The position numbers and the translations under genes were made by a program. Below the pieces are notes generated by a model. That model was not told where the DNA came from, ran no database searches, and worked only from the letters and a program-made list of their open reading frames with translations. Shown piece after piece: positions 42,556-62,379 of a stretch of DNA of 64,000 nt. Every line of letters starts with the position of its first letter. Position 1 is the first letter of the stretch. Source of the DNA: Alphaproteobacteria bacterium (GTDB lineage: Bacteria; Pseudomonadota; Alphaproteobacteria; RF32; CAG-239); contig JAFUSH010000034.1 of the NCBI GenBank assembly GCA_017471705.1, positions 43,934 through 107,933 of the forward strand, given 5' to 3'.

Positions 42556-42571
42556 TTGCTCTCTCCTTAAA

Positions 42572-45143: not shown

Positions 45144-45191
45144 CGTATTTTCCTATAATACACGTTAAAATTGAAATATCAACATCGGATT

Positions 45192-46841
45192 CTAATACCA
45201 AGGATTATCGGCTCGTTTCATTGCCTTTATCTTGTCATCTTCCGATGCGTATCGTACATTCCTAATAATAAATGAGTTTGGCTCCCTATCGGTAAAAATT
45301 ATGTTAATTTTATGATAATCAACACCATTATTGGCCAAAATCTTGTACAACAGCTTTAAACGCTTTTCCTGCAAAGCGTACGGAGCTGTCTTGTCTATCC
45401 TTATTTCGATAAACACATCTTCGTTTTTCACCGAATTATCTGCGAAAGCGTGTAGCCATTCAAGAGTTTGACCGGAAATTTCCGCCCGATTCGGCTGAAA
45501 AGATAATTTTAATTCGGAAGGAGTAATGTTATCATCATTGCTACCCCCGATGCCTAAAAGCTTATTAAATATTGAACCTTCGCTTTTTTGAGATTTTTTA
45601 TTGTTATTTTTACTTTGAGTTTTCGGAGCAGTGATATTATCGTTACCGGTCTTCTTTTTAGAACCTGAAAACCACTCGGCGATACTGTCCGATAAACTTT
45701 TAGAAGTTTCTTCGTCTGCATCGACATCATCGTCTTCTTCAAAATCTTGAAAATCATCGTCGTTATCATTGTTTGATTTGGTACTTGATGAATTATCAAA
45801 ATATTTATCATCATCTAAGGCCGGAAGTGTGTGTTTGGCACGCAGTTCGCGCTCTAACTTCAAATTTTCTTCCGAAGATGAAAATTGCGGTGTCAGATTA
45901 CGCTCATTCGCAATGTTTTCCGGTATGGGAATGACTAAATTTTTTTGCATTCTGTATTCTTCGGTCGGTTGCTCAATAACTTCCTGATCCGGAGAAATAA
46001 TGTTATCTTGATGCTTTGCCGCGTAAACATTAGCGGAATTTTCCTCAGATTTTTTATTCGAAGTCTCTGCAACTTCCCACGGATTTGTATATCCTTCGTC
46101 GGAAGAAGATAGGCCGGCCGAAAATTCGGATTTCCCAATATATCCGTCGTTATTTACCAACGGTTCGGTCACAGCCGCATAGGTATCGGCTCCCAAATTA
46201 TCGGTACTTACGCCGCTTGAAGCCATAGCAATTTGGTTTTCATCGGCACTGTCCGAAAATACTACAGTTCCGTTTTCCGTTTTATAGTGGTGTACCAAAG
46301 GAATTCTGAAAACCGGAGCTTCAGAGGCATCGGCTATTTGCAATTCTTCGGATTCTTCTTTCGTTTCAGCCACCTCTAAAACAGAAGAATTTTCAGCATC
46401 AGCTATGTCTAAGATAGAGGCATCTTCAATACGCAAATCATCGTTGTCCGAAACCTTAACTTCGGCGGACTTTTCATCTAATTCGGTATAATCGGTAGTT
46501 TCTGGTCGGTATAGCACTGTATCGGAAGAACCTGATTTGACGCTTTGATTTGAAATCAATTTATCTTCATCGTTATACGGCAATTCATTATGTTGTTCCA
46601 AACTTTTGAATTTGTCATATAACGGATCATTTTCTTCATTGGCGGCAAAAAGCTCAATATTTTGAGCCGGCAAATTTTCAATATATTCTTCCGTCGGTCC
46701 GTTTTCATTCAAAGACAAAACAAAATAAGCCTTGGTAACCGAAAATACGGCAACCAGTGAGAGAATAAAGCTTCCTAAAAAGCATTTTAAACCAAGTTTA
46801 GGCATTCCAAAATCCCATACATTCATTAAAGGTATCGGCAC
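45192..46841 (-). CDS. membrane-anchored highly acidic low-complexity protein (549 aa), first gene of the pil-like operon
   Basis: N-terminal TM/signal anchor LGSFILSLVAVFSV, long D/E/S/N-rich stretches (DNDDDFQDFEEDDDVDADEE), and a conserved-looking ~100-aa C-terminal domain. Confidence 0.45.
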   Translation of the reverse strand: MPIPLMNVWDFGMPKLGLKCFLGSFILSLVAVFSVTKAYFVLSLNENGPTEEYIENLPAQNIELFAANEENDPLYDKFKSLEQHNELPYNDEDKLISNQSVKSGSSDTVLYRPETTDYTELDEKSAEVKVSDNDDLRIEDASILDIADAENSSVLEVAETKEESEELQIADASEAPVFRIPLVHHYKTENGTVVFSDSADENQIAMASSGVSTDNLGADTYAAVTEPLVNNDGYIGKSEFSAGLSSSDEGYTNPWEVAETSNKKSEENSANVYAAKHQDNIISPDQEVIEQPTEEYRMQKNLVIPIPENIANERNLTPQFSSSEENLKLERELRAKHTLPALDDDKYFDNSSSTKSNNDNDDDFQDFEEDDDVDADEETSKSLSDSIAEWFSGSKKKTGNDNITAPKTQSKNNNKKSQKSEGSIFNKLLGIGGSNDDNITPSELKLSFQPNRAEISGQTLEWLHAFADNSVKNEDVFIEIRIDKTAPYALQEKRLKLLYKILANNGVDYHKINIIFTDREPNSFIIRNVRYASEDDKIKAMKRADNPWY

Positions 46842-47743: not shown

Positions 47744-48064
47744 ATGTTGTGCAATAGTATAAAGAGATTTTTGTACGAGAACAGATATGCAATTATCTTA
47801 TTTGTTTCTTTATTCTTTTTCATAACCGATGCCTCTGCTGAGACATTCGGTGCATTATCGACTGCCGGCACGGCAATTTTTCAGGGCTTGCGCAAAATTA
47901 TATATCCGGCGGCTACCATAGGTATAGCCTGTGTTTGTATCGGAGGTATGTTCGGCAGTTTTAACTGGAAGTGGTTAGTGGCAATTCTGTTGGGTGTGTT
48001 TATTATAGCCACGGCTAATTCCGGAAACGGTGTGGATGCTATTGCTATGGACGGCAGTAATTAG
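47744..48064 (+). CDS. virB2: VirB2-family pilin, paralog 2
   Basis: The same architecture (signal; ATIGIACVCIGGMFG...WKWLVAILLGVFIIA). GGAGG RBS. Confidence 0.65.
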   Translation: MLCNSIKRFLYENRYAIILFVSLFFFITDASAETFGALSTAGTAIFQGLRKIIYPAATIGIACVCIGGMFGSFNWKWLVAILLGVFIIATANSGNGVDAIAMDGSN

Positions 48065-48074
48065 GAGAATGCAG

Positions 48075-48473
48075 ATGAAAAGAATCGGCGTATTATGTTT
48101 TTTTATTTTAATTTGTTGTGTTGCTTTTGTTTCTCCGGCATTTGCCGAGCCTTCATCCGGTGATGCTATTTGGACTAAATTAGCTGGCAAGGCCAGTACT
48201 ATAGGGGTAGGTTTGCAGAAAAGCGGCTTTATTATAGGCGGTATCGGGTTAATCTTTTTTTCATTTATGGCAATTTTTAACAAGATATCGTGGAAGAATC
48301 TTGCCTATATTATGCTGAGCTGTTTTGTGCTTTCGGCAATGGTTGCATTGGTTAATTATTTTTCGGCAAAAGATGCAACCAGTACGGCTTCGTACTCAGA
48401 ATTTAACGGTCCTGACGGCGAGGTTTCTTTTGAAGGAGGCGTAGCTCCTGCCGGAGGGACGGCGCATAAATAG
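48075..48473 (+). CDS. virB2: VirB2-family pilin, paralog 3
   Basis: Signal MKRIGVLCFFILICCVAFVSPAFA and two hydrophobic helices. RBS AGGAGAATGCAGATG. Confidence 0.65.
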   Translation: MKRIGVLCFFILICCVAFVSPAFAEPSSGDAIWTKLAGKASTIGVGLQKSGFIIGGIGLIFFSFMAIFNKISWKNLAYIMLSCFVLSAMVALVNYFSAKDATSTASYSEFNGPDGEVSFEGGVAPAGGTAHK

Positions 48474-48482
48474 GGGAATATA

Positions 48483-48923
48483 ATGAGGTTGTTTGCTTGG
48501 CTGAGTGCTTTTTGTTTTTTTATATCGGTATCCCCTGCTATGGCATACATAGAAGAAGATACTGCCGGAATGACGGAAGCAGATGCCGGTGAGCAGAATA
48601 CCAATATGTATAAACTGAATGCACGCGGTGATTATTTTATCAAGAAACTGAAAAAAATAGATGAATATGCCAGTAAAAATAGTCGGTATGAAGTGCCTAA
48701 TCTGTCCGATATAAATGACATAAACAGTTTTGAACAAAAGAATAAGGAAGAAGAGCAAAATAAATTGATTTTAGCCGACGTGGTTAAAATGACGTCTAAT
48801 CCGCAACAACTGAAAGTTATTCTTAAATCCGATGTTTATACGTCATTGACGGCTATTAACGAAGTGCGCGATGCACAAGTTGCATCGGTATTGCAAAGAC
48901 AAATTGCCGGAGGACGCCGATGA
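48483..48923 (+). CDS. small secreted protein (146 aa) between the virB2 paralogs and virB3
   Basis: Signal peptide MRLFAWLSAFCFFISVSPAMA, then a hydrophilic Lys/Glu-rich body. It overlaps the virB3 start by 4 bp. Confidence 0.45.
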   Translation: MRLFAWLSAFCFFISVSPAMAYIEEDTAGMTEADAGEQNTNMYKLNARGDYFIKKLKKIDEYASKNSRYEVPNLSDINDINSFEQKNKEEEQNKLILADVVKMTSNPQQLKVILKSDVYTSLTAINEVRDAQVASVLQRQIAGGRR

Positions 48924-49210
48924 GAGAAGAGATTCTGAAAGCGGTTGCGCAACCTCCGAAAGTACTGTGGGCTCCGATGGTACCTGCTCTCATAAATTTA
49001 GGCGTTCAGTTTCCGATGATGTTTATCGGTATGGGTATCGGCGGAGCTAACCCGCTGTATTTTGTTGCTTGTATTATAATTGCGCACGCCGTGTTGGTGG
49101 GGTTGGGAATAAAAGAGCCGCATTTGTCCACAATGCTGCAGGCTTACGGTCAGACATACAGAAAAACAATAAATCTTTATGTGGTAAAGGGTAATAAGTT
49201 TGAGCCATGA
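48920..49210 (+). CDS. virB3: type IV secretion system protein VirB3
   Basis: 96 aa, two TM. LWAPMVPALINLGVQFPMMFIGMGIG is VirB3-like. Translationally coupled to virB4. Confidence 0.75.
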   Translation: MREEILKAVAQPPKVLWAPMVPALINLGVQFPMMFIGMGIGGANPLYFVACIIIAHAVLVGLGIKEPHLSTMLQAYGQTYRKTINLYVVKGNKFEP

Positions 49211-51636
49211 ATGAATACGATTTTTTCAGCATATTTGTGCAAGGATTAAACAATATTCAGGTAGCTGTAACGGTAATAGGTATTATTGCCGCGGCTTCGT
49301 TTTCGGTTTTATTGGTGACCAAATTCGGTAATTGGGTGTTGCCGCAACCGAGAGAATCACGGGTTTCAGACTTTTTGCCGTTTCAAAAATTGATGTCCGA
49401 CGGAGTTACCATTCAATGCAGTAACAATTCCTATGCCCGAGTATTCAGATTAGATGGTGTTGATTTATCATCTGCGACCAACGAAAAAGTATATTCTATG
49501 ATGGAAGCGCGGAAGGCGTGGATTGACGATATGTCAAATATGCAGGTAATATGCCGTATTATAACCACCAGAGACAGAGCTTCGTTGGAAAGTGAAAAAC
49601 GCGACTTCGGTAACAAATTGCTGGAAACTGTTTCAAAAATTTGGTATGAAGGGATGAACCGCGTTTATGAGAACAAACACTATATTGTTCTTTCGGTTAT
49701 TGATCGTAAAGACGCCTTGAAGGATTTGAACTACGCATCTCAAAGTTTGATATCTACATTGGGAGAGTATGGGGTAAGTCCTATGTATGAAAGTGATACC
49801 AGCAGTCCGCTTGATAGTCCGTTTTATTTGTTTTCTCATCTTTGCAGTCCGGTTTCCAAACCGACGCCGAAGGTTCGTAATACCGGCGGGGCGCGGATGT
49901 GCGAAATGCTTACGGCTGACCATATTCATTTTACGGAAGAGGAAGGAATTATTCATTTTTTCTCGGGTGACAGCGATTTGTTCGAAATTGTTATGGGAAT
50001 TCGTGTCAGCGGTGAAGCAATGGATGAAAGTATGATATATTCTTTGAACGCCATTGATTGCGAGTTGGTAATATTGCACAATATCAGACCGTTTTTCAGG
50101 GCTGAGGCCAGAGGTTTGTTAATGCAGCAACAGCGTATGGCAATGACTACGAGTTTGTCGGGAGGAGTGGTGGAGCAATACGCCGCGGCTCTGGCTTCAA
50201 TTGATGACAGTGATAATGACTATCAATCGCTGTGTGAATATTCAATGAGCATAATAGTAAAAGGAGCTTCAAAAGAAGAGTTGGATTTCGGAGAATCTGA
50301 AGTACAAAGAATATGCCGTTCTTTCGGTGTTACTCCGGTTCGGGAAGGCTGGGTAACGCAGGCAGTGTTCTTTACGCAATTTCCGACATACGATACTTAC
50401 CCGAGAACTTATCGCTATCTTTCACGCGTTATAGCTATGGCAATAACTATGGATAAACCTGCCGAAGGCTTCGGAAAAAGCGACTGGGGAAAAGGAGCAA
50501 TTACCATTTTCCGCACAATGTCCGGTTCGGCATATCGTTTCCAATTTCACGTAAGCAGTGAAGAATCGGCAGTGGCTCACTGTTGTATTATCGGTCCTAC
50601 CGGTCAAGGTAAAACAACGTTGTTGACATTTTTGGCCGGTCAGGCGATGCGGCACGGTGATTTGAAAGTGTTCTTCTTTGATCGTCACTTAGGTGCGCAA
50701 ATATTCACTCGAGCCGTTAAGGGAGCATATATCGGTTTTGACGGTGACGAAAAAAATGTTTCGCTTAATCCGTTTGATTGCGCAAATACCGCGGAAAACA
50801 GAGCGTTTTTACGTCGTTGGCTGAAGTCTATTACTATGATTGATGATGCTTTGGCCGATCGCGAAGTTTCTCGTGCGGTTACGACTGCTTTTGATTATTT
50901 ACGTCCGGAAGAACGTTTGTTGAAGAATCTGTATAAAAGTTGCTTTTCTCCGACCGGAAATATGCGCAGAGAGCTGTATCGTTGGGTAAATCCGGATCAA
51001 TACGGAGCTATTTTTAACGGTCAGGATGACAGTTTGGATTTGAAGAGCCGGCGCTTTATGGCTTTCGATTTCACACATATTTTTGAAGATGAGAATTTGG
51101 CTCCGGCGGTAATCAGTTACATTATGCACCGTATTCAAGCCGAAACCGGAGAAACCGGCGTTCCGTCATTGATCATGATTGATGAAACGGCGCCAATGCT
51201 GAAGCACCCGATGTTTAGAGATTATTTCATTATAGGTTTGCAAGAAGGACGTAAGAAACGTCAGGCTTACTTATGTGCGTTCCAACAACCTAACATTGTA
51301 GATAAATTGGGCGTGGGCGAAGTTATTCGCGGTCAATGTCAAACGGTTATTTTCTTCAGAAATCCGCAAGCACAACCCGATGATTATGCTAACTGGAATT
51401 TGACGCAAAATGAGCTTGATTTTATATTCGGTAAGAGTTACCGCGATTTTCCGTATGCCATACTGCTTTCCCGACCTGTTACCGGAGAATCGGTGATATT
51501 GGATGTTAATTTGGGCGGTTTGGGTAAATATCTGCGAGTTTATAACTCAGGTCGTAAGAATGTGTTGTTGGTTCAGCAGCTTATCCAAGAGTACGGCGAA
51601 GATAACTTCCTCACGAAATATTTGGATTTCTCATAA
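49207..51636 (+). CDS. virB4: type IV secretion system ATPase VirB4
   Basis: 809 aa. Walker A IIGPTGQGKTTLL, Walker B LIMIDETAPM, VirB4/CagE/TrbE domain order. Confidence 0.9.
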   Translation: MNEYDFFSIFVQGLNNIQVAVTVIGIIAAASFSVLLVTKFGNWVLPQPRESRVSDFLPFQKLMSDGVTIQCSNNSYARVFRLDGVDLSSATNEKVYSMMEARKAWIDDMSNMQVICRIITTRDRASLESEKRDFGNKLLETVSKIWYEGMNRVYENKHYIVLSVIDRKDALKDLNYASQSLISTLGEYGVSPMYESDTSSPLDSPFYLFSHLCSPVSKPTPKVRNTGGARMCEMLTADHIHFTEEEGIIHFFSGDSDLFEIVMGIRVSGEAMDESMIYSLNAIDCELVILHNIRPFFRAEARGLLMQQQRMAMTTSLSGGVVEQYAAALASIDDSDNDYQSLCEYSMSIIVKGASKEELDFGESEVQRICRSFGVTPVREGWVTQAVFFTQFPTYDTYPRTYRYLSRVIAMAITMDKPAEGFGKSDWGKGAITIFRTMSGSAYRFQFHVSSEESAVAHCCIIGPTGQGKTTLLTFLAGQAMRHGDLKVFFFDRHLGAQIFTRAVKGAYIGFDGDEKNVSLNPFDCANTAENRAFLRRWLKSITMIDDALADREVSRAVTTAFDYLRPEERLLKNLYKSCFSPTGNMRRELYRWVNPDQYGAIFNGQDDSLDLKSRRFMAFDFTHIFEDENLAPAVISYIMHRIQAETGETGVPSLIMIDETAPMLKHPMFRDYFIIGLQEGRKKRQAYLCAFQQPNIVDKLGVGEVIRGQCQTVIFFRNPQAQPDDYANWNLTQNELDFIFGKSYRDFPYAILLSRPVTGESVILDVNLGGLGKYLRVYNSGRKNVLLVQQLIQEYGEDNFLTKYLDFS

Positions 51637-51739
51637 TTGCTGATTTTGTATGCTGCGATCTACGGTGCTCTCTATGAAGTCGTTCCTCGCACGATGCAGT
51701 ACATTCTGCGTCAAGGAATCTGACCTTTCAACGTATAGC

Positions 51740-52040
51740 GTTGCTTCTGATTTCGCGTCATTCTGAACCCTGAGCATAGCGAATGGGTGAAGAATCCATT
51801 TCGTTCCGCCGGAACGAAACAACGCCATCGGCGTTGCTGGATACTTCGCCGCCAATGCGGCTCAGTATGACGATAAAAAGTCAGCGTTGCTTCTTTATTA
51901 TTTAATCGGAAGATCCTCTGATTTTTGCTTTTGGTCACAAAAGCAAAAAAGGGATGACTTTATTGTTATATTTTAGTCGGAAGCCTCTCTGACGATTCCT
52001 GCGGAATCGAGGGGTGACTTTATTATCTTTATAGTAATAT
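51740..52040. repeat. structured intergenic element with a 22-bp perfect palindrome, a long-range imperfect inverted repeat and a degenerate ~60-bp tandem duplication
   Basis: ATTTCGTTCCGCCGGAACGAAA (51798-51819). CGTCATTCTGAACCCTGAGC versus GCTCAGTATGACG. Units AATCGGAAGATCCTCTGA...GGGATGACTTTATTGTTAT and AGTCGGAAGCCTCTCTGA...GGGGTGACTTTATTATCTTT. GC-enriched relative to the flanks. Confidence 0.4.
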
Positions 52041-52226
52041 CTCCGAATGCACGGTGAAGTAAATTGGTCAATATTCTTAATAATAGACAATTTGTCCATT
52101 AAAATGTAACAAAAATTTAACATTTTTTTTATTAAAATTGTGATACACTAATAAAAGGAGAATGGGTTTACTTTGCGCTGAAGATATGTTAGCATAAGAA
52201 TATCTGGGCACTACAGGGAGGTTATT

Positions 52227-53453
52227 ATGATGGTAAATACAAAGAGATTCAATATTTTGGCCGGCGTTGCCTTTATGATAACGTTTGCGGCGCCTGATGC
52301 AAAAGCTTTTCCGTTGCTTTGTGGGGATCCTTCCCGTTTAGTAGCCAGCGCTAAGGTTACAATGCAGGAAATTATGATAATCAAGCAAGAAGTTGAGAGT
52401 AATCTGCGAATCATTGAAGAAATTCGCAACGGTGGCTTTGCCGCAGCCGGTGCGATGATTTTCGAGAAAATTCAAAACGGTGATTATGATCGCTTCGGTA
52501 AAGCTTTGAGTAATGTTAAAACCAATGCGCAGGATATGGCACATAATGTGGCGGAACGTGAAGAAAGAGCTAAAAGGGAAAAAGAGCTGAGAGAAAGCGG
52601 TATGAGCGCTAAAGAAGCTAAGGCTAAGGCTCAACAAGAATCCGCCGAGAGAATGGTAGAATGGCAGAAAAAACAAGACGAAGCCAGAGAAAAAGCTAAA
52701 TCTGAGCGCGGTTCAAACGCTTTTACAAATTCGTATAACTGGCTGAAAAATAATCAATCATTTACCAGCGGCGCCAGCACTGCTTTAAGAGGTGTTGACA
52801 GCGGCAATTGGGGACAGGCTTTAAGCGGTGCGGCAGGTGCCACCGGAGGTGCAATCAACAGCGGCGGCGAATCCACACTCGGAAACATTTTCCAAAATGC
52901 GGCAGGCGGTGCCGGAAATGCTCTGAACAGCGCGCTTGACGGCAATTGGGGTAATGCCTTTAATGCAGCGGCCGGAGGCGCCGGTTCCGCAATTGGCGGC
53001 GCGACTGGATCCGAAGGTATCGGTAATACCATCGGTGCGATTGGTAATATAGGCGCCGGTGCTTATGATGCTATCAGCAGCGGCGATGGTTTCGGCGGTA
53101 CCGTAAATAATTTAATTAATAACAACCAGATAAACTCCGGACTTACCGGTTTAGAGAACGGCTATAATCAAACACAGGAAGAGCGCGAGGCCGCGCTTAA
53201 AGCTCAAGAAGAAGCTGCGAAAAAACAAGCCGAGGAATTAAAAAAAGGATTAGACGAACAGATAAAGAAGGATCAAGAAGAGAGAAAGAAAGAGCAACAG
53301 AAAAAATGTCAGGAATGCCGTAAAAATGCTCAAGCCGGAGCAGAAGCTGCGGCGAAGGCTGCCGGTAAAACGGGATTGGCGGCTCAAGCAGATGCAGAAG
53401 CAAGGGTTAATAGCCAATGTTTAAGTGCTTGCGGTGGTTTTTCAGGTATGTAA
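52227..53453 (+). CDS. secreted coiled-coil / glycine-rich GNWG-repeat protein with C-terminal CxxC...CxxxC motif (paralog A)
   Basis: Signal peptide, an N-terminal coiled coil, two ~47-aa Gly/Ala/Asn repeats (GNWGQALSGAAGATGG...; GNWGNAFNAAAGGAG...), a Lys/Glu coiled coil, and a C-terminal CQEC...CLSACGG. Confidence 0.6.
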   Translation: MMVNTKRFNILAGVAFMITFAAPDAKAFPLLCGDPSRLVASAKVTMQEIMIIKQEVESNLRIIEEIRNGGFAAAGAMIFEKIQNGDYDRFGKALSNVKTNAQDMAHNVAEREERAKREKELRESGMSAKEAKAKAQQESAERMVEWQKKQDEAREKAKSERGSNAFTNSYNWLKNNQSFTSGASTALRGVDSGNWGQALSGAAGATGGAINSGGESTLGNIFQNAAGGAGNALNSALDGNWGNAFNAAAGGAGSAIGGATGSEGIGNTIGAIGNIGAGAYDAISSGDGFGGTVNNLINNNQINSGLTGLENGYNQTQEEREAALKAQEEAAKKQAEELKKGLDEQIKKDQEERKKEQQKKCQECRKNAQAGAEAAAKAAGKTGLAAQADAEARVNSQCLSACGGFSGM

Positions 53454-53465
53454 AGGAGCAAAACA

Positions 53466-54740
53466 ATGAAGAATAAAATATTAAACAGAATCTTATTTTT
53501 AACAGTTATTTCGGTAATGGTATTGCCCCTTCCGTACACAGTATCGGCGCAGACATTTACACCGCCGACTAGTAATGATGATCCGATTGACGGCGGTTCT
53601 ATCGGTGAAGTTGTGGTTACAGGCAAGAAACCTACATATACGGCGAATTTCAGCGGATTTAATCCTACTCCGCTGGATGGAGCAACTATCCCGACCATAA
53701 ATGTTACGGCAACTGCTCCTGCTCCTGTTGTCACTTCAGATGGTAATGATGATCCGATTGACGGCGGTTCTATCGGTGAGGTTGTGGTTACAGGCAAAAA
53801 ACCTACATATACGGCGAATTTCAGCGGTTTCAATCCTACTCCGCTGGATGGAGCAACTATCCCGACCATAAATGTGGGTAATTCTTATGACGGTCCGAGT
53901 GAAGAAGATGGAGAAGAAGGCACTGCAGGTGAGAGCTATACAATGACTTCGACTGTTCGTACGAATGATAACGGTAGTATAAACGAAACTACGGACAGCA
54001 GTTCATTTACAATAACCGACGGCGGAACAGGAAATGGTACAGATTTATCTGCAGCAATCGCCAATGCTGGCGGTAATATAGTTCCGGATCCAACGACTAC
54101 AACTATTAATCCCAGTGATGTAAAAATAGATAATTTACCGCAGCCGACAACTACAACGGTAAAGGAAGAGGAAGATTTAAGTCAGTATACCGGTTTGTAT
54201 AACGGTCGTCAGTTATTACCGGATATTATGGCGAGACATTGCCGAATTAAAGGTGAAGATGTTGCTAAAGATGTAAGTTTGTATGTTGAATGTATCAAAC
54301 AGTATGTTTCGGAAATGAACAGTTCCAATGCGGCGGCAAAAGCTAAAGCTCAGGAAGAATTTGAGATATTGCGTTATAAAGGATTGTTGGATATGGCTTC
54401 CAATGCGATGACCAAGTCGCAAAGTGTTCTCAATTATGAAAACACGATGAACGAATACAATAAAGCTGATCAGGATATGCAGACCGAATTTGACGATAAT
54501 CACGCTTTGATAGCAACAATGTCGTTTATTACCGATGTTATGAACAGTTTCAGAGAACTGCAGGCTGAACAACTTAAGTATTTGGCGATAAGCGGTATTG
54601 TTAACGTTGATCCGGCGGTTGTTTTGGCAGATGAAGAAGAGGAAGAACCGGAAGAAAAGAAACCTGCATCAACAAACGGTAATGCTGGAGATGCGGAAAT
54701 ACATACCACGGAAGCAAATACCACGATTAAACATAATTAA
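53466..54740 (+). CDS. secreted protein with a 57-aa tandem repeat, a Thr-rich linker and a C-terminal helical domain
   Basis: Signal peptide. The unit NDDPIDGGSIGEVVVTGKKPTYTANFSGFNPTPLDGATIPTINV occurs twice. PTTTT linkers and an acidic tail. Confidence 0.6.
   Translation: MKNKILNRILFLTVISVMVLPLPYTVSAQTFTPPTSNDDPIDGGSIGEVVVTGKKPTYTANFSGFNPTPLDGATIPTINVTATAPAPVVTSDGNDDPIDGGSIGEVVVTGKKPTYTANFSGFNPTPLDGATIPTINVGNSYDGPSEEDGEEGTAGESYTMTSTVRTNDNGSINETTDSSSFTITDGGTGNGTDLSAAIANAGGNIVPDPTTTTINPSDVKIDNLPQPTTTTVKEEEDLSQYTGLYNGRQLLPDIMARHCRIKGEDVAKDVSLYVECIKQYVSEMNSSNAAAKAKAQEEFEILRYKGLLDMASNAMTKSQSVLNYENTMNEYNKADQDMQTEFDDNHALIATMSFITDVMNSFRELQAEQLKYLAISGIVNVDPAVVLADEEEEEPEEKKPASTNGNAGDAEIHTTEANTTIKHN
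53571..53876 (+). repeat. two 135-bp near-identical direct repeats (53571-53705 and 53742-53876) inside a coding region
   Basis: About 5 mismatches over 135 bp. The 171-bp period is in frame. Confidence 0.8.
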
Positions 54741-54778
54741 CTGACTGCAGGGAAACTAGAACGGAGGGAGATGGAATT

Positions 54779-56422
54779 ATGAATAAGAGAATGTTAGCAA
54801 TATTCATTGCCGCAGCGCTGGTAGTTTTTCCGAAAACCTCCAAGGCCGATTTGGATGTACTGTCTATTGCCCAAGATCAAATAACGTCAATTACGGAAAA
54901 AGTCGGTGCTATTGTTAAAAAATATACGCAAATTCAAGCAAGTTTGCAGGAATTGAGCTTAAACCGTAATATTGTGTCGCAGTTGAAGGATAAAGTAAAA
55001 TCAGAATTAAAGTCAAGAGCTATGGCTTTTTACGGAGATTTGAAAGATATGGCAATGGCGGAAGGAATGGCATTTCTGAAAACTTCTTTAAGCAGTGTGT
55101 CGTTACCGGGGGTCGGTCAATACATCGATTTGGGAGGCTTTATTAATCCGAAACTGACGGTGGCAGTCGGCAAAACTTATTTAAAGAAAAAGCATAAAAA
55201 GAATGATGTACAAAGTACTGTGGCGCAAGATGAGCGCAGTAACAATCTGATGATAGATAATTTATCTGTTTTATTTGCCAACAGTTTGGTTCGTCGTAAG
55301 CAGATTATAGAAGAAGATCCTTGCAGTTGCGTTGCCGAAGCAGGCAGAGATTGCAGCGAAGAAAAACAAAAATGTGAAGATCAAGAAAAAGAATTTAATG
55401 AAATGAGCGATATCAATGTTGTAAAGAATAAACAGTATGGAGTTATGCTTAACGCTAATCATCGCTGGTTAAAAATTAAAGAAGCGGTTGCAATGTATGC
55501 AAAGATGAAAGGCGAGGCAATGATGAATCAGGGTAATATAGATGATATCAGTGCTATAACCGGTGAAATAGAAGATGAGGAAGAAGAGGATGACACCGGT
55601 GAAGATGCAGTTCAGGCTTTAATGCAAAACAAAATCAATCCGTTGGATTTGACGAATTCAGTGAAAGACAGTTTAAATAAAATTAAAAGCGGCGATTATA
55701 CAGGTGCTTTTGCCGGCGCAATGGGGACAGCTACCGATTTATACGGTAATGCTCCCGGCAGTTGGGATAGTGTTACTAAAGCTATGCAAGAAGTTACCAC
55801 CGGTGCAGGTGCTTTGAATAATGCTTACCATAATGCCGAGAACGGAAACTGGGGCGGCGCGCTTAATTCAGCTTTAGGCGGTGCCGGAAATATTGTAGGA
55901 AGTACCGGTAATGAAGGGTTGGGTAATATATTCAATAATGCCGCCGGAGGAGCCGGAAACGCGCTTAACTCTGCACTTAGCGGAAACTGGGGCGCGGCCA
56001 TAGGCAATGCGGCAGGCGGCGCCGGAAATGCAATCAGCGGTAGCGGTAATGATGTTTTGGGCAGTTCAATCGGTGCGGTCGGAAGTTTAGTTAATGTCGG
56101 AGTAAATGCGGCAAATGCCGGCGGAAATTTAGGCGATATTATTGATAACACCGTGGGCAACAGTCAAGCTCAAGGAGCGTTGAATGCATTGTATGGTGCG
56201 TATGATGCGCAAAATACGCAAAACGCGGCCATTGTAGAAGCTCAGCAAAAAGCGGAAGAAGAACGTAATAAAAAATTTGAAGAAATGAAAAAACAGCAAG
56301 AAGAAGAGATGAAAAAGCGCAAGCAGGCTGAGTGCAAAAAATGCAATGAAGATAATGAAGCTTTGTTAAAAGCGGGCAAGCCGCTATCATCGCTCAAATC
56401 TTGTATCGGTGTTTGTATGTGA
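54779..56422 (+). CDS. secreted coiled-coil / glycine-rich GNWG-repeat protein with C-terminal CxxC...CxxxC motif (paralog B)
   Basis: Signal peptide, a VirB5/TrbJ-like N-terminal coiled coil, a mid Cys cluster CSC...C...C, and GNWGGALNSALGGAGN.../GNWGAAIGNAAGGAGN... repeats that resemble paralog A at the DNA level. C-terminal CKKC...CIGVC. Confidence 0.6.
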   Translation: MNKRMLAIFIAAALVVFPKTSKADLDVLSIAQDQITSITEKVGAIVKKYTQIQASLQELSLNRNIVSQLKDKVKSELKSRAMAFYGDLKDMAMAEGMAFLKTSLSSVSLPGVGQYIDLGGFINPKLTVAVGKTYLKKKHKKNDVQSTVAQDERSNNLMIDNLSVLFANSLVRRKQIIEEDPCSCVAEAGRDCSEEKQKCEDQEKEFNEMSDINVVKNKQYGVMLNANHRWLKIKEAVAMYAKMKGEAMMNQGNIDDISAITGEIEDEEEEDDTGEDAVQALMQNKINPLDLTNSVKDSLNKIKSGDYTGAFAGAMGTATDLYGNAPGSWDSVTKAMQEVTTGAGALNNAYHNAENGNWGGALNSALGGAGNIVGSTGNEGLGNIFNNAAGGAGNALNSALSGNWGAAIGNAAGGAGNAISGSGNDVLGSSIGAVGSLVNVGVNAANAGGNLGDIIDNTVGNSQAQGALNALYGAYDAQNTQNAAIVEAQQKAEEERNKKFEEMKKQQEEEMKKRKQAECKKCNEDNEALLKAGKPLSSLKSCIGVCM

Positions 56423-56439: not shown

Positions 56440-57705
56440 ATGAAAAAATATAATAAAAAGATTTTAATACTTGTAGCCGTTTCTTATCTGTCGGTGACTG
56501 CTCCGGCAATGGCTGTAACCAAATTGGAAGCTACAGGACCGGCTGCCGATATTGTTAACAAAATTCAGAAAGTTAAAGAAAAGTTCGAAGATATTCAAAC
56601 AAAGATAATGAAGGAGAAGGAAAAGTGGACCAAAAAGGCAGAGGCTTTCTTGGATAAAACACTTGGAACCGAAGGCGCGGCTTTGTTTAAGCAATATGTT
56701 GTAGAACCGGGAGCCGGTATTGTTAAAAGTGTTGCTAAAGGTCAGTATAACGCAGGTGATTTCAGTTTAAGCGGGTTTACCAGCGCCATAAAATCGGAAC
56801 TTGGCAATTACAAACTTGATTTTGCAACTTTGGTGTCGCAAGCAAAAGATATGGCTAATACTGCGGCCAAAGCCAGACTTGAAAAGAGCAGAGCCATTGA
56901 AATTCAAGTTGCTAAGCTGCAATCTGAATGGGATGCAAAGAATAATCTTAATGCAACCGTGAAGTCGGCTCAGTTGGAAGCAGAACTTGAAGAATTGGCT
57001 AAAAGAATATCTGGATTGAAAGAGCAAGCGGCTCAACTAAACAATAAGACGCTTGAGGAAACCGAAGCTCAAAAGAAAATGCAGGAAAAGATGGTGGCAA
57101 TGCAGGATTTGATGGCAAGTTACAGCGGTAAAATATCTCAGGATGATTTACTTAAAAAACTTAATGCCGAGGCAATGTCATTGTTCACGCTTAAAACCGA
57201 TGAAGAAGAAGATCAGGCGATATATTCTGCCAGTATGGAAAAGCTGTTTTTAGGTAAGTATGATTTCGGAACATCTGAGAATTTGGCGAGAATTCGCCGC
57301 GCTCGTCAGGAAGAATATTATAAGTCCGAAAAGAATATTCTCAAAGTTATTGTCGAAACTTATAACAGTATTGAAAATACCGAACAAAACATAAAAGGCT
57401 GTACGCAGGCAAGCGGAGAAGCACAGGCTATATTCGGCGGCAGTGCTATGCGTGTATGTGTCGATGTTCAGATAATAAAGATAGCAGCACAATATATGGA
57501 AATGTTATTGGCGCAAATTCAACAGGAAGCCAGTTTGGAGATTCAAAACTGGGCGGATATATACAAATTACCGGATTACAACCGTGATTATACCAAGTTT
57601 AATTTGGATGATTACGTTCTGACCAAAGATGACCTGAAAAAGAATTTGAAAAGTATGGCAACCGGAGCCATCGGTGATGCAATGATGAAATTTAAAGGTT
57701 TTTAA
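56440..57705 (+). CDS. secreted coiled-coil protein (421 aa)
   Basis: Signal MKKYNKKILILVAVSYLSVTAPAMA. GGGAGG RBS before the ATG at 56440. Long helical heptad regions and two Cys. Confidence 0.55.
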   Translation: MKKYNKKILILVAVSYLSVTAPAMAVTKLEATGPAADIVNKIQKVKEKFEDIQTKIMKEKEKWTKKAEAFLDKTLGTEGAALFKQYVVEPGAGIVKSVAKGQYNAGDFSLSGFTSAIKSELGNYKLDFATLVSQAKDMANTAAKARLEKSRAIEIQVAKLQSEWDAKNNLNATVKSAQLEAELEELAKRISGLKEQAAQLNNKTLEETEAQKKMQEKMVAMQDLMASYSGKISQDDLLKKLNAEAMSLFTLKTDEEEDQAIYSASMEKLFLGKYDFGTSENLARIRRARQEEYYKSEKNILKVIVETYNSIENTEQNIKGCTQASGEAQAIFGGSAMRVCVDVQIIKIAAQYMEMLLAQIQQEASLEIQNWADIYKLPDYNRDYTKFNLDDYVLTKDDLKKNLKSMATGAIGDAMMKFKGF

Positions 57706-57717: not shown

Positions 57718-60700
57718 ATGAAGAAAATAGTTTATTTTATATCCGTTTTAATGACTTGCCTTTGTCTTAACCGCAATGCGCAGGCGTTTGTATGGCCGGA
57801 TTTTACGCCTCTGATTCCGTTTTCTCCGCAATTTTGCGTTATGTGTATTCCACCGGCGATTGATTGGGCATATAATACCGTTGACCAAGTTAAAGATGCG
57901 AAGAATCGTTTGAAAGAAATGACCGACGTGACCAAAATTAAACAGGCGCTTTCGGCATATGCGGCAAATCTCGGAAATATGGCGCTTAATTGGGCAACAC
58001 AAAAATTATCCGCACGCAAAAAAGTTATATCGTATTCCCGTACCATTATGGATAGTGAGCGCGAGGGAGTGGATGTAAAAAAAGAAGATTCGGTTAAAGT
58101 TGATTTCGTAAATCTGTTTTTGCAGTATCCTTCGACTAAAAATAAAATAAAGAAAGCATATCAGAAAAAAGGAGATGCCATTAAAACCGATACATCTCTT
58201 GAGATGTACATTACCGCTTCCGAAATGATGAAAGAATTATGCGGTGCTAAGGGTAAAGGATGCGAATTAGCAACTACTTTAGCAGATTACGACGGAGATG
58301 TAAGCACCGAATTTAAAGATTTTAAAGATATGGGAATGATGTTGCAATTAAGTCTGGTTGAGCAATGCTTTATGCAAGGTCAATATTGTGGTTTAATCGG
58401 TACAATCGGTTGCGAGCCGGGTAAAGATGGAGACAGTAGTGCGGAGCCGTCGGAAGAACAACCGACAGAGGGAGAAAGCACCGATGAAGATAAGGTTTGT
58501 CACTGGAAGGCCAGTTTGCAGCTAGCCCGTATGTATGATAAAATTATGCGCTACAATGAAATGCTTGTTTATATGCAGTATCAGTATGAAGCTGTTAAAG
58601 GTATTGATACTCTGGCAAAAATCAGAGCTGCTAAAGAAAATGAAGGTACTAAGGGTGAGCAAGGTGCTTTTCTTATGGATAAATATTTGCCGCAAAAGAA
58701 AAATGTGGCCTACAGCACATTATCAGACACTTTTGCGTTTGCCGATGAAGAACTCACAGATGAAGATTTAGAAGAGTTTTCTAAATATGAAAAAAGTATG
58801 TCCAATCGCGAAAATGTATTGGGCGGCAACTTTGAAACTCTTAAAGAAGCAAAAGGTTTTGAAACGGTTTTGGATGATAAAAAAGATGATCTTGCCAGTA
58901 TGCAATTTTTGGAAGAAACCAATAAAGCACTGAAAGATGCATTGGTATATCACAATATGAAACAGATGTTGCCCGATTACAGAGGCACATTTAAAACTTT
59001 AAAACAAGCCGAGGAATATCACGATAAGACTGTGGAATATTTACAGGATTCCGGCGAATGTATAAAGGGATATTTGGAACCTCATTACAATAATCCTGCT
59101 AAAGTGTGGTTTGGTGAAGGGTGTGATTATTTTGACCAAGGAACCATATATTGTCACTATTCACCGGAAAAAGAAATAAATGACAGTGAGGAAAGCAAAG
59201 GTTTGTATGATGAGCTGTGTCCGGACAATCCTCAATATAAGTGTTTTATTCAAAAACTGGAAGAAAGCGATATGAATAAAGGTGTTGCCGGAGCTTTGTT
59301 AGCTTTTTATAATGAAGGCAAAACAGCTGATGCGTTGCAGGAAACTCAGACTTATCTCAAAGAGGGCGAACAGTCACCGGAAGTTGAAACAGAAAAAACT
59401 TCGGAAAAGTCATATACCGCTCAGGTTACCATAGAAGGCGGAGATGAGGTTTCCGGAGATAAAGAAACGTATGTTACCGGTCGTGATGATTCTGCGATGA
59501 TGGGCAGGGATAACGCCAATGCCTCAGATGTGTTGCCGAGTGCCAGTTCGGTTCAAGCAAAAGCAAAGACTACTCGTGATGATCAGGAAGCCGATGAAAA
59601 TATAAAAGATCCTAAGGCTGCCGAGAGTTTGGCCGATGAGACACGGAAAGGACACCTGATGAATTGGATATGGGGTGCTACTATGGCTAATGTCATTTCT
59701 GCCGATTTAGACAGTTCTTCTCCAAAATTCGGAACACGTAAAAATAAGTTTCCGTTATGGAATGACCAGAAAGAGTTTTATGACCAATATATTGACGGCA
59801 AATATGATAACATTTCTCAATATATGGAAAGAGCTCCGATGCCTGATGGTATTATGAGTGCTGCCGAGGCGATAAACGAAGTGTATAATTATCCTGAGAT
59901 AGTTAAAGAAATAAAAGATGCGTTAGGCAATGTAACGGATACGATTACGGTGACTAAAGATGAACAGCAGGGATTTATAGCTGATGCTATAGAAGCTGTT
60001 AAGGATGATTTTAAGGATGTAAAAGACGAAACAAAAGAAACAATGGACAGCTTGATTGAAACGGAAACGGCTGAGCTTGAGGCGTTAAAAGCAGAACATA
60101 ATGCCAAGATTAGTAAATTATTGGAAGAAAAAGAATTGCTTCAGAGCCGTTTGGGACAAACCAATAGGGATTTGGATGCCGCAAATCAGGCATTTAATAA
60201 TGCCGGAGGAAAAATAGCTTCTTCAGTAAATACCGACAGAGCAACTAAGGAAAATGACGAAGCGAATAGAGAATTGCAGGCTAAGTACCGCAATCCGGTG
60301 GATTTATCCCAATCTCCGGCAAATAAGAAATTTGCGGGGATGAAGGCGGAAAGCGCAGAAAACAAAAAAGCTGCCGAAGCCGAACTTAAAGCCAAAGAAA
60401 AAGAAGCTCAAAACTTGGAAAAGAGTTCGGAAATGTTGGCTAAGTTGCTGAAGGCTAAAAAAGAAGAAATTGAAAAAGAACGCCGTCAGTTTGTTAAAAA
60501 ATACAGCGAAGCCGAAGAAAATGCCCGCAACGGATTTAATGATAAGGTGGAAGCTTATCTGGAAGAAGGTGTCGTTCTGAAAGATGAAGATGTCACTGCT
60601 ACTATTGAAAATGCAATAGTAAGAGCATCTGAGAAACTTTCCAAAGAGTTGTCAAGTCAGTATGGTACGGCGATTTCTATTGAACTGCCGACTGTAGCAG

Positions 60701-62379
60701 CAAGCGGAGCCGGACAAATGATTGCCTGTCTGCGTGAAAAAGCATCGCAAACTGCCAAAGATACGAAAGAGCAGGATATGAATTCGCTGAAAGCAAACGG
60801 CAAAATATATTATAATGAGTATGCGCCGGATGTTACGAATAAACACAACTCAATGATTAATAAAATGAAGAGTATAAGCGAATGTGCAATCGAAGGCGTA
60901 CCTTCCGAACCTATAGCCGAAAAAGTTTTCGGAGATATGTGCGATTCCGTTAATTGTACTACTCCTGATTTAAGCAAAGACGAAAACGGTTTGATAAATT
61001 ATTTTGTCGGTGCTTTGGGTGTAAGAGATGACTTGAAGGCTCCTACTCCGCCGGTAGCATTTTCATCGGCGCCGATGCGTGAAATTTTCCACTTTGATAT
61101 TGCTGACTACGAAAGTATTGAGAAGTATTACGAAGATGATGAGCCGAAAAATCCGAGCAGTTCGGATATTACCATAACGGCAGAAGGTTTCTTGAAGTTG
61201 GGTGAGGATATGCAATCCGGTCAAAAAGAGGCACAACAGAAATTGGAAAATCAAGGCGAAGTGGCCGGAACATTCCCTGAAATATGGAAGTATGTATTGA
61301 GACGTCATACTTACGGTCAAAAACAATTTGATCTAAAGAGGCTGTTGGGCAGTAAGGAATTAGGTGATGATGTTCGCGGTAATCCGGATAAGAGTTATTT
61401 GCGTTCAGGCAGTTTCCCTTGTTATATTGATAACAATGTAATTGATGCTTCGGCGGTGGTTAAATTGGTAGGTTTCAGACTTGTCCCGAATAATTTCAGC
61501 TATTCGATAAACAGTACGCCGGATAAGGATTTGTATACTAAAGTTCCGTGTAAAGGGTTGTTGATTAAAAAAGGAAGAGTGTTTGATTTTACGGCTGACG
61601 GAAGTCCACCTAACGGCGTACCTGTAAACGGTGAAGGAAGTATCAGCGAAACCAGTGAATTAGGAACTATTTTAGGATATGTTCCTGACGCAAACAATAA
61701 TATAGTGCGAGTTCTATTCGGTCACGGAATACCTACGGATATGAGCAAGGCTCCGCGTAAGCTGACATTTAATTCTACGCTGCAAAAAGCTGTGAATATT
61801 ATTTCCGAAACGGAAGAATTAGGCGAAGATAAAAGTAAAGATGCGGTATTCTATATGGCTAACCGCACCTTGCTTGACCGCAATCAGTTCGGTGATTATT
61901 TAAATCAGGTAGAGCAAGAAGCTATAGCGCGTGAATCTTTGGCGAAAATTCAAAACCAGATAGATGAGATATTGACAAATCTGCAAGATGTTTTTTACGG
62001 CACCGGTATTGTTATATCTGATGAGTTTAATTTACTGAATGATGATGATTATAAAGAGGCTGCCGAGGCTTTGGATGAACAAAAGCAAATATATCTTAAC
62101 AGAGCCGAAACGGAAATTCAAAAAGTTAAGGGTGTTTCCGAGACGGTAAAAAACAAGACGGAAACGCTTTTGAAGACCATTGCCGTTTTACGTGCGGATA
62201 GCGATGAAATTATTCATTTGAACGGCGGTGAGGATATAAATCAGGTTAAGTCCAGAATAGCCAATCAGAGTGCTGATAATTCGGTCGGAGATGAATATGA
62301 AAAAATGGGTGACGAAGCTCATCTGCGCCGGATAAGAGATTTACAGCCTCCTTTCTGTGAAGTTCATCCTTATAAATAA
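57718..62379 (+). CDS. giant secreted cysteine-rich coiled-coil protein (1553 aa)
   Basis: Signal MKKIVYFISVLMTCLCLNRNAQA. About 24 Cys, many in CxxC/Cx(n)C pairs. A central ~400-aa Lys/Glu coiled coil. No TM helices. Confidence 0.6.
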   Translation: MKKIVYFISVLMTCLCLNRNAQAFVWPDFTPLIPFSPQFCVMCIPPAIDWAYNTVDQVKDAKNRLKEMTDVTKIKQALSAYAANLGNMALNWATQKLSARKKVISYSRTIMDSEREGVDVKKEDSVKVDFVNLFLQYPSTKNKIKKAYQKKGDAIKTDTSLEMYITASEMMKELCGAKGKGCELATTLADYDGDVSTEFKDFKDMGMMLQLSLVEQCFMQGQYCGLIGTIGCEPGKDGDSSAEPSEEQPTEGESTDEDKVCHWKASLQLARMYDKIMRYNEMLVYMQYQYEAVKGIDTLAKIRAAKENEGTKGEQGAFLMDKYLPQKKNVAYSTLSDTFAFADEELTDEDLEEFSKYEKSMSNRENVLGGNFETLKEAKGFETVLDDKKDDLASMQFLEETNKALKDALVYHNMKQMLPDYRGTFKTLKQAEEYHDKTVEYLQDSGECIKGYLEPHYNNPAKVWFGEGCDYFDQGTIYCHYSPEKEINDSEESKGLYDELCPDNPQYKCFIQKLEESDMNKGVAGALLAFYNEGKTADALQETQTYLKEGEQSPEVETEKTSEKSYTAQVTIEGGDEVSGDKETYVTGRDDSAMMGRDNANASDVLPSASSVQAKAKTTRDDQEADENIKDPKAAESLADETRKGHLMNWIWGATMANVISADLDSSSPKFGTRKNKFPLWNDQKEFYDQYIDGKYDNISQYMERAPMPDGIMSAAEAINEVYNYPEIVKEIKDALGNVTDTITVTKDEQQGFIADAIEAVKDDFKDVKDETKETMDSLIETETAELEALKAEHNAKISKLLEEKELLQSRLGQTNRDLDAANQAFNNAGGKIASSVNTDRATKENDEANRELQAKYRNPVDLSQSPANKKFAGMKAESAENKKAAEAELKAKEKEAQNLEKSSEMLAKLLKAKKEEIEKERRQFVKKYSEAEENARNGFNDKVEAYLEEGVVLKDEDVTATIENAIVRASEKLSKELSSQYGTAISIELPTVAASGAGQMIACLREKASQTAKDTKEQDMNSLKANGKIYYNEYAPDVTNKHNSMINKMKSISECAIEGVPSEPIAEKVFGDMCDSVNCTTPDLSKDENGLINYFVGALGVRDDLKAPTPPVAFSSAPMREIFHFDIADYESIEKYYEDDEPKNPSSSDITITAEGFLKLGEDMQSGQKEAQQKLENQGEVAGTFPEIWKYVLRRHTYGQKQFDLKRLLGSKELGDDVRGNPDKSYLRSGSFPCYIDNNVIDASAVVKLVGFRLVPNNFSYSINSTPDKDLYTKVPCKGLLIKKGRVFDFTADGSPPNGVPVNGEGSISETSELGTILGYVPDANNNIVRVLFGHGIPTDMSKAPRKLTFNSTLQKAVNIISETEELGEDKSKDAVFYMANRTLLDRNQFGDYLNQVEQEAIARESLAKIQNQIDEILTNLQDVFYGTGIVISDEFNLLNDDDYKEAAEALDEQKQIYLNRAETEIQKVKGVSETVKNKTETLLKTIAVLRADSDEIIHLNGGEDINQVKSRIANQSADNSVGDEYEKMGDEAHLRRIRDLQPPFCEVHPYK

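Follow-up and report, generated by a model that had tools for sequence, protein, structure and literature searches.

The DNA analysed here is a chromosomal stretch of 64 kb (hereafter the window), in which a run of plus-strand genes encodes part of a type IV secretion system (T4SS). Two of these genes, A and B, specify proteins of 408 and 547 amino acids (aa) that carry glycine-rich repeats marked by the tetrapeptide GNWG. Both open reading frames (ORFs) lie exactly where the first-pass annotation had placed them (Table 1), and the architecture it claimed for the two products, namely a signal, a coil, GNWG repeats, a charged coil and a four-cysteine tail, is borne out in each. Our analysis indicates that A and B join one common C-terminal module to two different N-terminal bodies, and leads us to suggest, more tentatively, that they are accessory subunits of the secretion machine with which they are encoded.

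Independent ENA and Logan assemblies carry the locus, and the product of B is identical in all of them; it is also 100% identical to NCBI MBQ8481884.1, 'hypothetical protein IJ532_05070'. From A to virB8, the DNA of locus L017 matches the window at 100%, a scaffold gap in gene M aside, and that of L018 at 99.98%. Further afield, our comparison set consists of 13 species-level loci from metagenome-assembled genomes (MAGs), with an A family of 23 members and a B family of 33, and orthologues of A and B are found in at least 13 species-level MAGs. Measured against L004, the ratio of non-synonymous to synonymous substitution (dN/dS) is 0.10 for A, 0.05 for B and 0.06–0.07 inside the repeat regions, compared with 0.012 for VirB4; synonymous divergence (dS) from the nearest species exceeds 1, so that this divergence is saturated and the figures for A and B (0.05–0.10) are rough. 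The A and B ORFs are real genes, intact in independent assemblies and under purifying selection, and we find no sign of the frameshifts that the first-pass annotation had named as grounds for refutation.

The similarity between A and B is significant and sharply bounded. In a composition-adjusted BLASTP comparison, residues 177–374 of A align with residues 337–532 of B at 40% identity over 201 aa (E 3e-18), and alignment of the two family profiles with hhalign gives a probability of 99.9% (E 1.3e-36) confined to the C-terminal ∼200 columns. The N-terminal domains of A and B do not align. The paralogy proposed in the first-pass annotation therefore holds for a common C-terminal module, and not for the two unrelated N-terminal bodies that bear it. 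Within the window this module is present in A and B alone, and all four GNWG motifs in the six-frame translation of the 64 kb fall in these two proteins.

As had been noticed, each protein contains two GNWG motifs. They lie at residues 193 and 239 in A and at 356 and 402 in B; the spacing is exactly 46 aa (138 nucleotides, nt), where the repeats had earlier been given as ∼47 aa long. Since the nucleotide repeats recur at both 69 and 138 nt, the true period is 23 aa, paired as 46-aa units, and residues 356–470 of B consist of five exact 23-mers with a degenerate unit in front. Among 28 distinct family units the 46-aa consensus is GNWG(G/Q)ALSGAxGGAGxxxNSxGxxxLGNIFNxASxGAGNALNSALN, with the anchor Trp kept in 86% of units; the composition is strongly biased, at 24–27% Gly, 19% Ala and 14–19% Asn. 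In both 23-aa halves the hydrophobic moment of these 28 units has its maximum at 100 degrees, with nothing at 160–180 degrees, so each 46-aa unit bears the signature of two amphipathic helices rather than of beta strands. We had considered a beta-solenoid or amyloid-like interpretation of the 23-aa period, and set it aside on the position of this peak.

Structure prediction with AlphaFold2 (AF2) from the family alignments is uneven. A has a mean predicted local distance difference test score (pLDDT) of 57 and B one of 42.5, and the repeats, which are drawn as helix-turn-helix units, score below 50. The confident part of both proteins is the coil and Cys tail (pLDDT 74–89): in A, a helix spans residues 317–379 with pLDDT climbing from 54 to 89 across residues 321–360, and in B a helix spans residues 463–531 with pLDDT of 55–86 over residues 491–530. 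The four cysteines, invariant where the tail occurs, are residues 361, 364, 398 and 402 of A (CQEC...CLSAC) and 519, 522, 542 and 546 of B (CKKC...CIGVC), and the loop between the pairs varies from 5 to 33 residues in the family alignments. As the CxxC pair lies on one predicted helix and the CxxxC pair on the next, the simplest reading of the model is a disulfide-stapled helical hairpin; the four cysteines may alternatively form a metal site. Plant alpha-hairpinins (CxxxC...CxxxC) and mitochondrial twin-CX3C and CX9C proteins are disulfide-stapled helical hairpins. The tail of A and B resembles them in that two consecutive predicted helices each bear a pair of Cys separated by one helical turn, and differs in its CxxC plus CxxxC spacing, its variable loop and its bacterial extracytoplasmic setting.

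The N-terminal bodies are alike in their export signal but otherwise distinct. Both products begin with a basic n-region and a hydrophobic core, followed by an AKA↓F (A) or SKA↓D (B; MNKRMLAIFIAAALVVFPKTSKA↓DLDV, read from the sequence) cleavage motif, which are Sec-type signals, and a hydropathy scan finds no hydrophobic segment beyond the N-terminal signal in either protein. In A, the signal peptide is followed by a conserved N-terminal domain, a K/E-rich helix, the repeat module, the charged coil and the four-Cys tail. Residues A27-F28-P29 are invariant across the 23-member alignment, and the N-terminal domain (residues 28–100) is the best-conserved section of the product. The N-terminal domain of B, of ∼270 aa, is unrelated to that of A and contains a CxC...C...C cluster at residues 182–199. 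We also noted that residues 62–102 of A (nt ∼52410–52532) contain a motif, NGGFAAAGAMIFEKIQNGDYDRFGKAL, that looks like one C-terminal repeat unit (KIKSGDYTGAF.../GNIFNNAAGGAGNAL). The hidden Markov model (HMM) of the module reaches this motif only at E 8, so that a common origin of the two is at most a possibility.

The strong Gly/Ala/Asn bias of these proteins and their low AF2 confidence raise the question of whether they are low-complexity ORFs that are not real genes, or whether their similarity comes from composition alone. We regard this as almost certainly wrong. Orthologues occupy the same position in at least 13 species under the constraint described above, conservation is position-specific (the anchor Trp, the invariant Cys), and the BLASTP score already allows for composition.

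Searches for relatives support the view, expressed in the first-pass annotation, that the domain combination is not a recognised one: profile and structure searches with A and B gave no Pfam, NCBIfam, PDB sequence or fold match. Pfam and NCBIfam scans of the window proteins and of all family members, at E up to 10, returned compositional noise alone (TolA, ARGLU, Microcin V), and neither glycine-zipper (Rickettsia 17-kDa antigen) nor PE/PPE models appear among the Pfam matches at that threshold. No autotransporter beta-domain, autotransporter passenger or collagen Gly-X-Y model matched in Pfam or NCBIfam, the well-known families that the first-pass annotation had singled out, and the period is 23/46 residues, not three. 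PDB sequence profiles gave nothing below E 0.05 for A or B. The top match there, at a non-significant E of 0.055, was phiKZ gp174, a baseplate 'pin' protein (PMC13250141), in which we see no functional link to A or B. When the module profile was run exhaustively with HMMER against 1.84 billion representatives, 47 proteins came up at E ≤ 1e-3. Most belong to this T4SS family; the rest match weakly and are Gly-rich or resemble TPR proteins, with a helix that starts GDY/GNW-x-x-A. A profile search using A's N-terminal domain found zero relatives outside the family, and a literature search on GNWG and on the T4SSs of these gut Alphaproteobacteria found nothing relevant. A and B are thus an unclassified and very small family with a previously undescribed repeat module, within an already known theme of fast-evolving, repeat-bearing T4SS accessory proteins.

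Two other repeat classes bear a resemblance to the module. Like TPR and Sel1-like solenoids, it has tandem amphipathic helix pairs and a first helix that starts G-(D/N)-(Y/W)-x-x-A. However, its unit is 46 residues as against 34–40, it is extremely rich in Gly and Asn, none of the Pfam models for TPR or Sel1 gives a match despite the helix-pair periodicity, and the weak matches to TPR-CHAT and GDY-repeat proteins (E 1e-5 or weaker) are probably compositional. Mycobacterial PE_PGRS and PPE-MPTR proteins are type VII-linked surface proteins with Gly-Ala-Asn, GC-rich, copy-number-variable repeats. They share with A and B the composition, the copy variation and the link to a secretion system, and differ in the secretion system concerned and in the grammar and period of the repeat; A and B lack a PE or PPE domain.

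The genes around A and B are collected in Table 1. Their plus-strand order is two VirB2 genes, orf146, VirB3, VirB4, A, M, B, D, E and VirB8, with AddAB-like nuclease/helicase genes, MurJ, tyrosyl-tRNA synthetase and UvrA upstream. Continuing past the end of the window (L018 10903–20756), a 62-aa VirB7-like lipoprotein lies between two VirB8 genes and is followed by a 552-aa VirB9, then by a protein of 1014 aa with beta-flower and RHS repeats, another of 486 aa and a VirB10 of 1412 aa that also has beta-flower repeats. Gene E has no family match; its relatives in distant loci have 26–35% identity and keep their position, and in L010 it is split into two ORFs. Public records name the MAGs rumen or gut 'Alphaproteobacteria bacterium' or, once, 'uncultured Rhodospirillaceae bacterium', so that the Rickettsiales framing of the first-pass annotation is not upheld. 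From these records and the gene content, the T4SS appears to be a lineage-specific, chromosomal system of uncultured rumen and gut Alphaproteobacteria.

Table 1. Genes and features of the locus (window positions), with amino acid identity to the window across the 13 loci compared.
Feature	Positions	Strand	Description and basis	Identity to window
VirB11/T2SSE-like ATPase	35220–36188	+	separate gene	
Type IVb pilus operon	36192–46841	−	PilN-type secretin, TcpQ, PilO, T2SSE ATPase, T2SSF platform	
VirB2 pilin paralogue 1	47744–48064	+	Pfam TrbC/VirB2	
VirB2 pilin paralogue 2	48030–48473	+	Pfam TrbC/VirB2	
orf146	48483–48923	+	synteny	
VirB3	48920–49210	+	Pfam VirB3	69–96%
VirB4	49207–51636	+	Pfam CagE_TrbE_VirB	86–97%
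Candidate structured element (core)	51640–52060		in the virB4-to-A gap (51637–52226)	
Gene A	52227–53453	+	408 aa; first gene 3' of virB4; ORF, 23-member family alignment, position kept in 13 loci	25–38% in distant loci
A signal peptide	52227–52307	+	aa 1–27; AKA↓F cleavage motif, MMVNTKRFNILAGVAFMITFAAPDAKA↓FPLL; from sequence	
A N-terminal conserved domain	52308–52526	+	aa 28–100; FPLxxDxxRL...IKQExESN...NGG...KIQNGDYDRFG; invariant alignment columns	
A repeat module	52722–53162	+	aa 166–312; 23-aa amphipathic units in 46-aa pairs; GNWG at nt 52803–52814 and 52941–52952	
A charged (K/E/Q/A) helix	53163–53306	+	aa 313–360, from repeats to Cys tail; AF2 and alignment with B coil	
A four-Cys tail	53307–53450	+	aa 361–408; 'long' variant CQEC-x33-CLSAC-GGFSGM	
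Gene M	53466–54740	+	424 aa; exported; between A and B; without the shared module	25–38% in distant loci
M tandem duplication	53572–53875	+	171 nt (57 aa), copies 97% identical	
Gene B	54779–56422	+	547 aa; ORF, family alignment (33 members), dN/dS 0.05	25–38% in distant loci
B repeat module	55664–56209	+	aa 296–477; degenerate lead-in (KSGDYTGAF...), then six 23-aa units; GNWG at nt 55844–55855 and 55982–55993	
B charged helix	56210–56332	+	aa 478–518; AF2 and hhalign	
B four-Cys tail	56333–56419	+	aa 519–547; 'short' variant CKKC-x19-CIGVC-M	
Gene D	56440–57705	+	421 aa from the ATG used by gene callers; ORF list start TTG 56401 overlaps B	25–38% in distant loci
Gene E	57718–62379	+	1553 aa; giant exported Cys-containing protein	25–38% in distant loci
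VirB8	62391–63146	+	first gene after the A-M-B-D-E block; Pfam PF04335	55–87%

The gene order from the virB2 genes to virB8 is identical in 13/13 loci, with two VirB2 paralogues in the window and three or four in other species (loci L006–L016). Set against the core genes in Table 1, the identities show the module to evolve several times faster than the core machine, yet under purifying selection. Repeat number across the orthologues shifts in 46-residue steps, from 0 to about 6. Relative to the window, one A orthologue (P0042) has one extra 46-aa unit and three (P0045, P0047 and P0054) have one or two fewer, while the A proteins of the human-gut clade have almost no repeats. B orthologues P0033–P0035 have up to about six units, and between those of L015 and L016 there is a length difference of 92 aa, or two units. 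Recent tandem copies of 138 nt are visible in L015 (3.2 copies at 96% identity) and in L013 (2.6 copies at 88%).

The C-terminal tail has its own history. The four-Cys tail is confined to the rumen clade, and the A and B proteins of any one clade have a tail type in common. In the rumen clade this is a Cys hairpin; L012, L015 and L016 have [IL]N[DES]SL[KRN][KQ]Q, and L011 has NDPN. The 'long' tail of the window A protein (CQEC-x33-CxxxC-GGxxGM) is identical at 38 of 73 positions to the tail of a B protein, P0010 of L020, compared with 21 of 77 for the A tail of the L020 genome. Over the whole module, the window A protein matches that same B orthologue at 44% identity over 245 aa (E 4e-50), as against a score of 73 bits with the B protein of its own genome. 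By these comparisons, the coil and tail are shown to have moved between the A and B lineages.

It had been proposed in the first-pass annotation that the repeat DNA, GC-rich and nearly identical in the two genes, makes A and B substrates for recombination and copy-number change. The repeat DNA is indeed GC-rich (0.51–0.55, versus 0.40 for the window), because of its Gly and Ala codons. It is not nearly identical: the longest near-identity between A and B is 26 nt at 96%, the repeat copies inside each gene have 60–73% DNA identity, and even the identical 14-residue peptide NAAGGAGNALNSAL is encoded in the two genes at 76% nucleotide identity, with many synonymous differences. The DNA of A and B has diverged to saturation, and the two genes of this genome are therefore poor recombination substrates. 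On the same nucleotide evidence we rejected recent gene conversion between them, the B protein of this genome being merely the fifth-best partner of the window A protein. Changes in repeat number and exchange between the two loci are thus visible only across species, in 46-aa steps and through the moved coil and tail. If the two genes formed a contingency system, their similar repeat DNA would keep gene conversion and copy-number switching going in populations of this organism; such a model would draw on those whole-unit changes, on the young tandem copies of L015 and L013 and on the exchange of coil and tail. We consider it very improbable here, since in addition to the divergence just described, with synonymous sites saturated even in identical peptides, independent assemblies from several samples match the window. 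Near-identical DNA driving recombination would have been the most striking part of the system, and it is not present.

In the stretch examined, from virB2 to virB10, no VirB6-like polytopic protein is seen, and the hydropathy scan of A, M, B, D and E shows no membrane segment besides the N-terminal signal, where VirB6/TrbL proteins would show at least five. In related plasmid T4SSs, the 3' side of virB4 holds a ∼260-aa protein in the VirB5 position and then a membrane protein, which is annotated in two of the three plasmids as a ∼340-aa 'type IV secretion system protein'. As the plasmid systems carry these two genes after virB4, the A-M-B-D-E block occupies the usual place of VirB5 and VirB6. 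Gene A, directly 3' of virB4, would be the positional counterpart of VirB5.

One explanation that follows from this position is that A, and perhaps B too, belongs to the VirB5/TrbJ-type minor pilins as a highly divergent member that caps the pilus, the repeat module being an extension acquired at the C-terminus in this lineage; this is a narrower version of the reading we favour below. In the window, as in all 13 loci, virB4 is directly followed by gene A, the locus is without another VirB5 candidate, and the A protein has a signal peptide and is all-helical by AF2. Furthermore, mature A opens with (F/I)P(L/V)xxDxxR(L/I) and then a Q/E-rich helix, similar to the xPVxD opening of VirB5-position proteins, and a 22-column motif of its N-terminal domain matches a Microvirga plasmid T4SS protein with a probability of 38%. 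VirB5, TraC and TrwJ (PF07996) are likewise encoded directly after virB4, Sec-exported and helical. On the other hand, A and B are 1.5–2 times longer and carry a repeat module and a Cys tail unknown in VirB5. Neither PF07996 nor the NCBIfam TrbJ/VirB5 models match A or B, and PF07996 does not appear in the family listings of the A members (23) and B members (33); as a control, the Microvirga VirB5-position protein itself is weak for PF07996 (E 0.17). Alignment by hhalign with the VirB5-position proteins of the Nitrosospira, Roseibium and Microvirga plasmids, a thin profile of three sequences, gave probabilities of 0.2% for the N-terminal domain of A and 0.4% for B. We judge a VirB5 identity to be improbable, though by no means negligible.

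The apparent lack of a VirB6 suggests a second explanation, namely that A and B form a periplasmic scaffold or spacer, standing in for a VirB6-type stalk or tying the inner-membrane complex to an enlarged outer-membrane complex, with the number of hairpins setting its length and the Cys tail forming intermolecular disulfides. Agrobacterium VirB7 and VirB9 are joined by disulfides of this kind. The machine is indeed enlarged, given the sizes of VirB9 and VirB10 and the extra 1014-aa and 486-aa proteins, and the length of A and B changes in whole units. However, one would expect inner parts to show the conservation of VirB4 and VirB8 and not to drop to 25–38% identity, and a range of 0 to about 6 units is hard to square with a fixed periplasmic distance. 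We therefore think it doubtful that A and B are spacers of this kind.

Alternatively, A and B could be exported cargo, either periplasmic substrates released by the T4SS in the manner of pertussis toxin or bacteriocin-like, pore-forming Gly-rich proteins aimed at neighbours or host membranes. They diverge fast, they combine a Sec signal with a common C-terminal tail that is a possible recognition signal, and their amphipathic helices are rich in small residues; one family member has a weak Microcin V match (E 0.013), and the module has weak matches on the toxin-like GDY/GNW-repeat proteins P0068 and P0076. These similarities to microcins and toxins lack significance and reflect composition, the Pfam and NCBIfam scans show no toxin or immunity domain, and the helices are too polar (rich in Asn and Ser) for membrane-spanning segments. 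The position of A and B inside a structural operon is, moreover, fixed in every genome, where cargo genes are usually more mobile. A role as cargo is, in our assessment, unlikely. As an observation in their own right, P0068 (1465 aa) and P0076 (1009 aa) come from unrelated metagenomes and have Gly/Ala-rich helical arrays of the form x-G-(N/D)-(W/Y)-x-G/A-A after a hydrophobic segment; their matches to the module profile are weak (E 1e-8 to 1e-5), and by eye P0068 also has a LysM-like stretch. The two may show the same repeat grammar at work in other secreted proteins, or mere shared composition.

The reading that we favour, tentatively and with slightly less than even confidence, is that A and B are Sec-exported accessory or pilus-associated subunits of the T4SS with a common docking module, functionally comparable to CagH, CagI and CagL of H. 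pylori. These three proteins are encoded by operon neighbours without homologues in other systems, and they share a C-terminal hexapeptide motif encoded by divergent DNA (PMC3164655). [quoted passage not shown] A and B are alike in being neighbouring T4SS-specific genes whose products have different bodies and a common C-terminal part encoded by divergent DNA. They differ in that the common part is a 200-residue module and not a hexapeptide, and the Cag proteins lack both the Gly/Ala/Asn repeats and the four-Cys tail; we detected no sequence relationship between the two sets. The resemblance we propose is therefore functional, by analogy, and no homology is claimed.

For A and B as accessory subunits, the following scheme can be sketched. 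Sec would export both proteins to the periplasm, after which they would become part of the secretion apparatus or its pilus, or be displayed there. The coil and tail that they share would act as an address or docking element, bringing A and B to one site or together, and in the rumen clade this element would be clamped by two disulfides linking the helix with CxxC to the one with CxxxC. The array of helical hairpins would be the exposed part, adjustable in length, and the distinct N-terminal domains would make different contacts.

Several points weigh against this scheme. The localisation and interaction of A and B that it supposes are deduced from sequence features, and the two proteins have no detectable similarity to VirB5/TrbJ models or to the plasmid VirB5-position proteins. 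The hairpin fold rests mainly on sequence periodicity, since AF2 scores the repeats at pLDDT below 50. As the Cys tail is missing in about half of the lineages, disulfide clamping is not essential to the function of the family, and since there are few independent clades, the co-variation of tail type between A and B is confounded by phylogeny. Finally, the architecture of the machine itself is uncertain, because no VirB6-like polytopic protein was found in the part of the operon examined.

Comparison with other lineage-specific systems puts these features in context. In the Bartonella Trw system, amplified trwJ copies give variant surface parts alongside multiple VirB2 pilins, and the T4SS described here likewise has multiple VirB2 paralogues, two to four. 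The Rickettsiales rvh system has tandem VirB6-like paralogues, polytopic VirB6-domain membrane proteins, after virB3 and virB4. Like our system it is chromosomal and vertically inherited, with duplicated VirB2 and VirB8 and no canonical VirB5, and it has a fast-evolving lineage-specific gene block exactly between virB4 and virB8. Unlike the polytopic rvh proteins, A, M, B, D and E are without membrane segments past the signal, and the host is no demonstrated member of the Rickettsiales. More generally, T4SSs recruit lineage-specific outer components that decide what the machine contacts, as with CagL, CagI and CagH, the Trw pilus variants and the rvh VirB6 paralogues; to our knowledge, such components have been studied almost exclusively in pathogens.

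A bolder version of the accessory-subunit reading, which we offer as speculation that is probably wrong in at least some part, is that A-M-B-D-E replaces the canonical VirB5-VirB6 pair in a widespread commensal lineage of the rumen and human gut. In that case A and B would represent pilus or surface subunits of a new class, in which hairpin number sets the reach or specificity of an enlarged, Cag-like T4SS directed at the host or at neighbours, and in which the C-terminal address is exchangeable and sometimes clamped by disulfides.

If A and B are exposed subunits, they offer a handle on what the T4SS of these rumen and human-gut bacteria contacts. They are in any case a clean example of modular evolution, by unit-wise change in repeat number and by swapping of tails between paralogues. 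The practical value of this is modest until the system is cultured or reconstituted. The machine is unusual enough to merit specialist attention, with no recognisable VirB5 or VirB6, a giant VirB10, an adjoining type IVb pilus and conservation from rumen to human gut.

Further observations concern the neighbouring genes. The tandem duplication in gene M is, judged by the identity of its copies, much younger than the repeats of A and B and a better candidate for copy-number variation. The seemingly shorter M gene of L017, an assembly of the same strain, is no such variant, as a scaffold gap of Ns lies exactly at the M repeat. The second VirB2 gene of the window probably starts at an internal ATG near 48069, rather than at the overlapping GTG at 48030. 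Two of the loci compared, L014 (CAVEOB010000003.1) and L015 (CAVKTH010000005.1), are binned as [Ruminococcus] gnavus and Bacteroidaceae, and these contigs are most likely mis-binned.

The gap between virB4 and A is 590 nt in the window, compared with ∼70–145 nt in orthologous loci. The extra ∼420 nt contain two tandem 'TCGGAAG-hairpin-GGRTGACTTTATT' units and fold far better than shuffled sequence (z −5.95 and −5.3 on the two strands). The element has no Rfam match and no second copy in the window, and a 37-mer from it is absent from JGI metagenome contigs; a possible reading is that a structured non-coding element has inserted in this strain specifically. Upstream of the T4SS genes lies the type IVb pilus operon, arranged head-to-head with them, and next to it the separate VirB11/T2SSE-like ATPase gene. 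The TcpQ gene and the gene for a 549-aa pilus protein occupy the same position in every locus whose upstream flank is covered.

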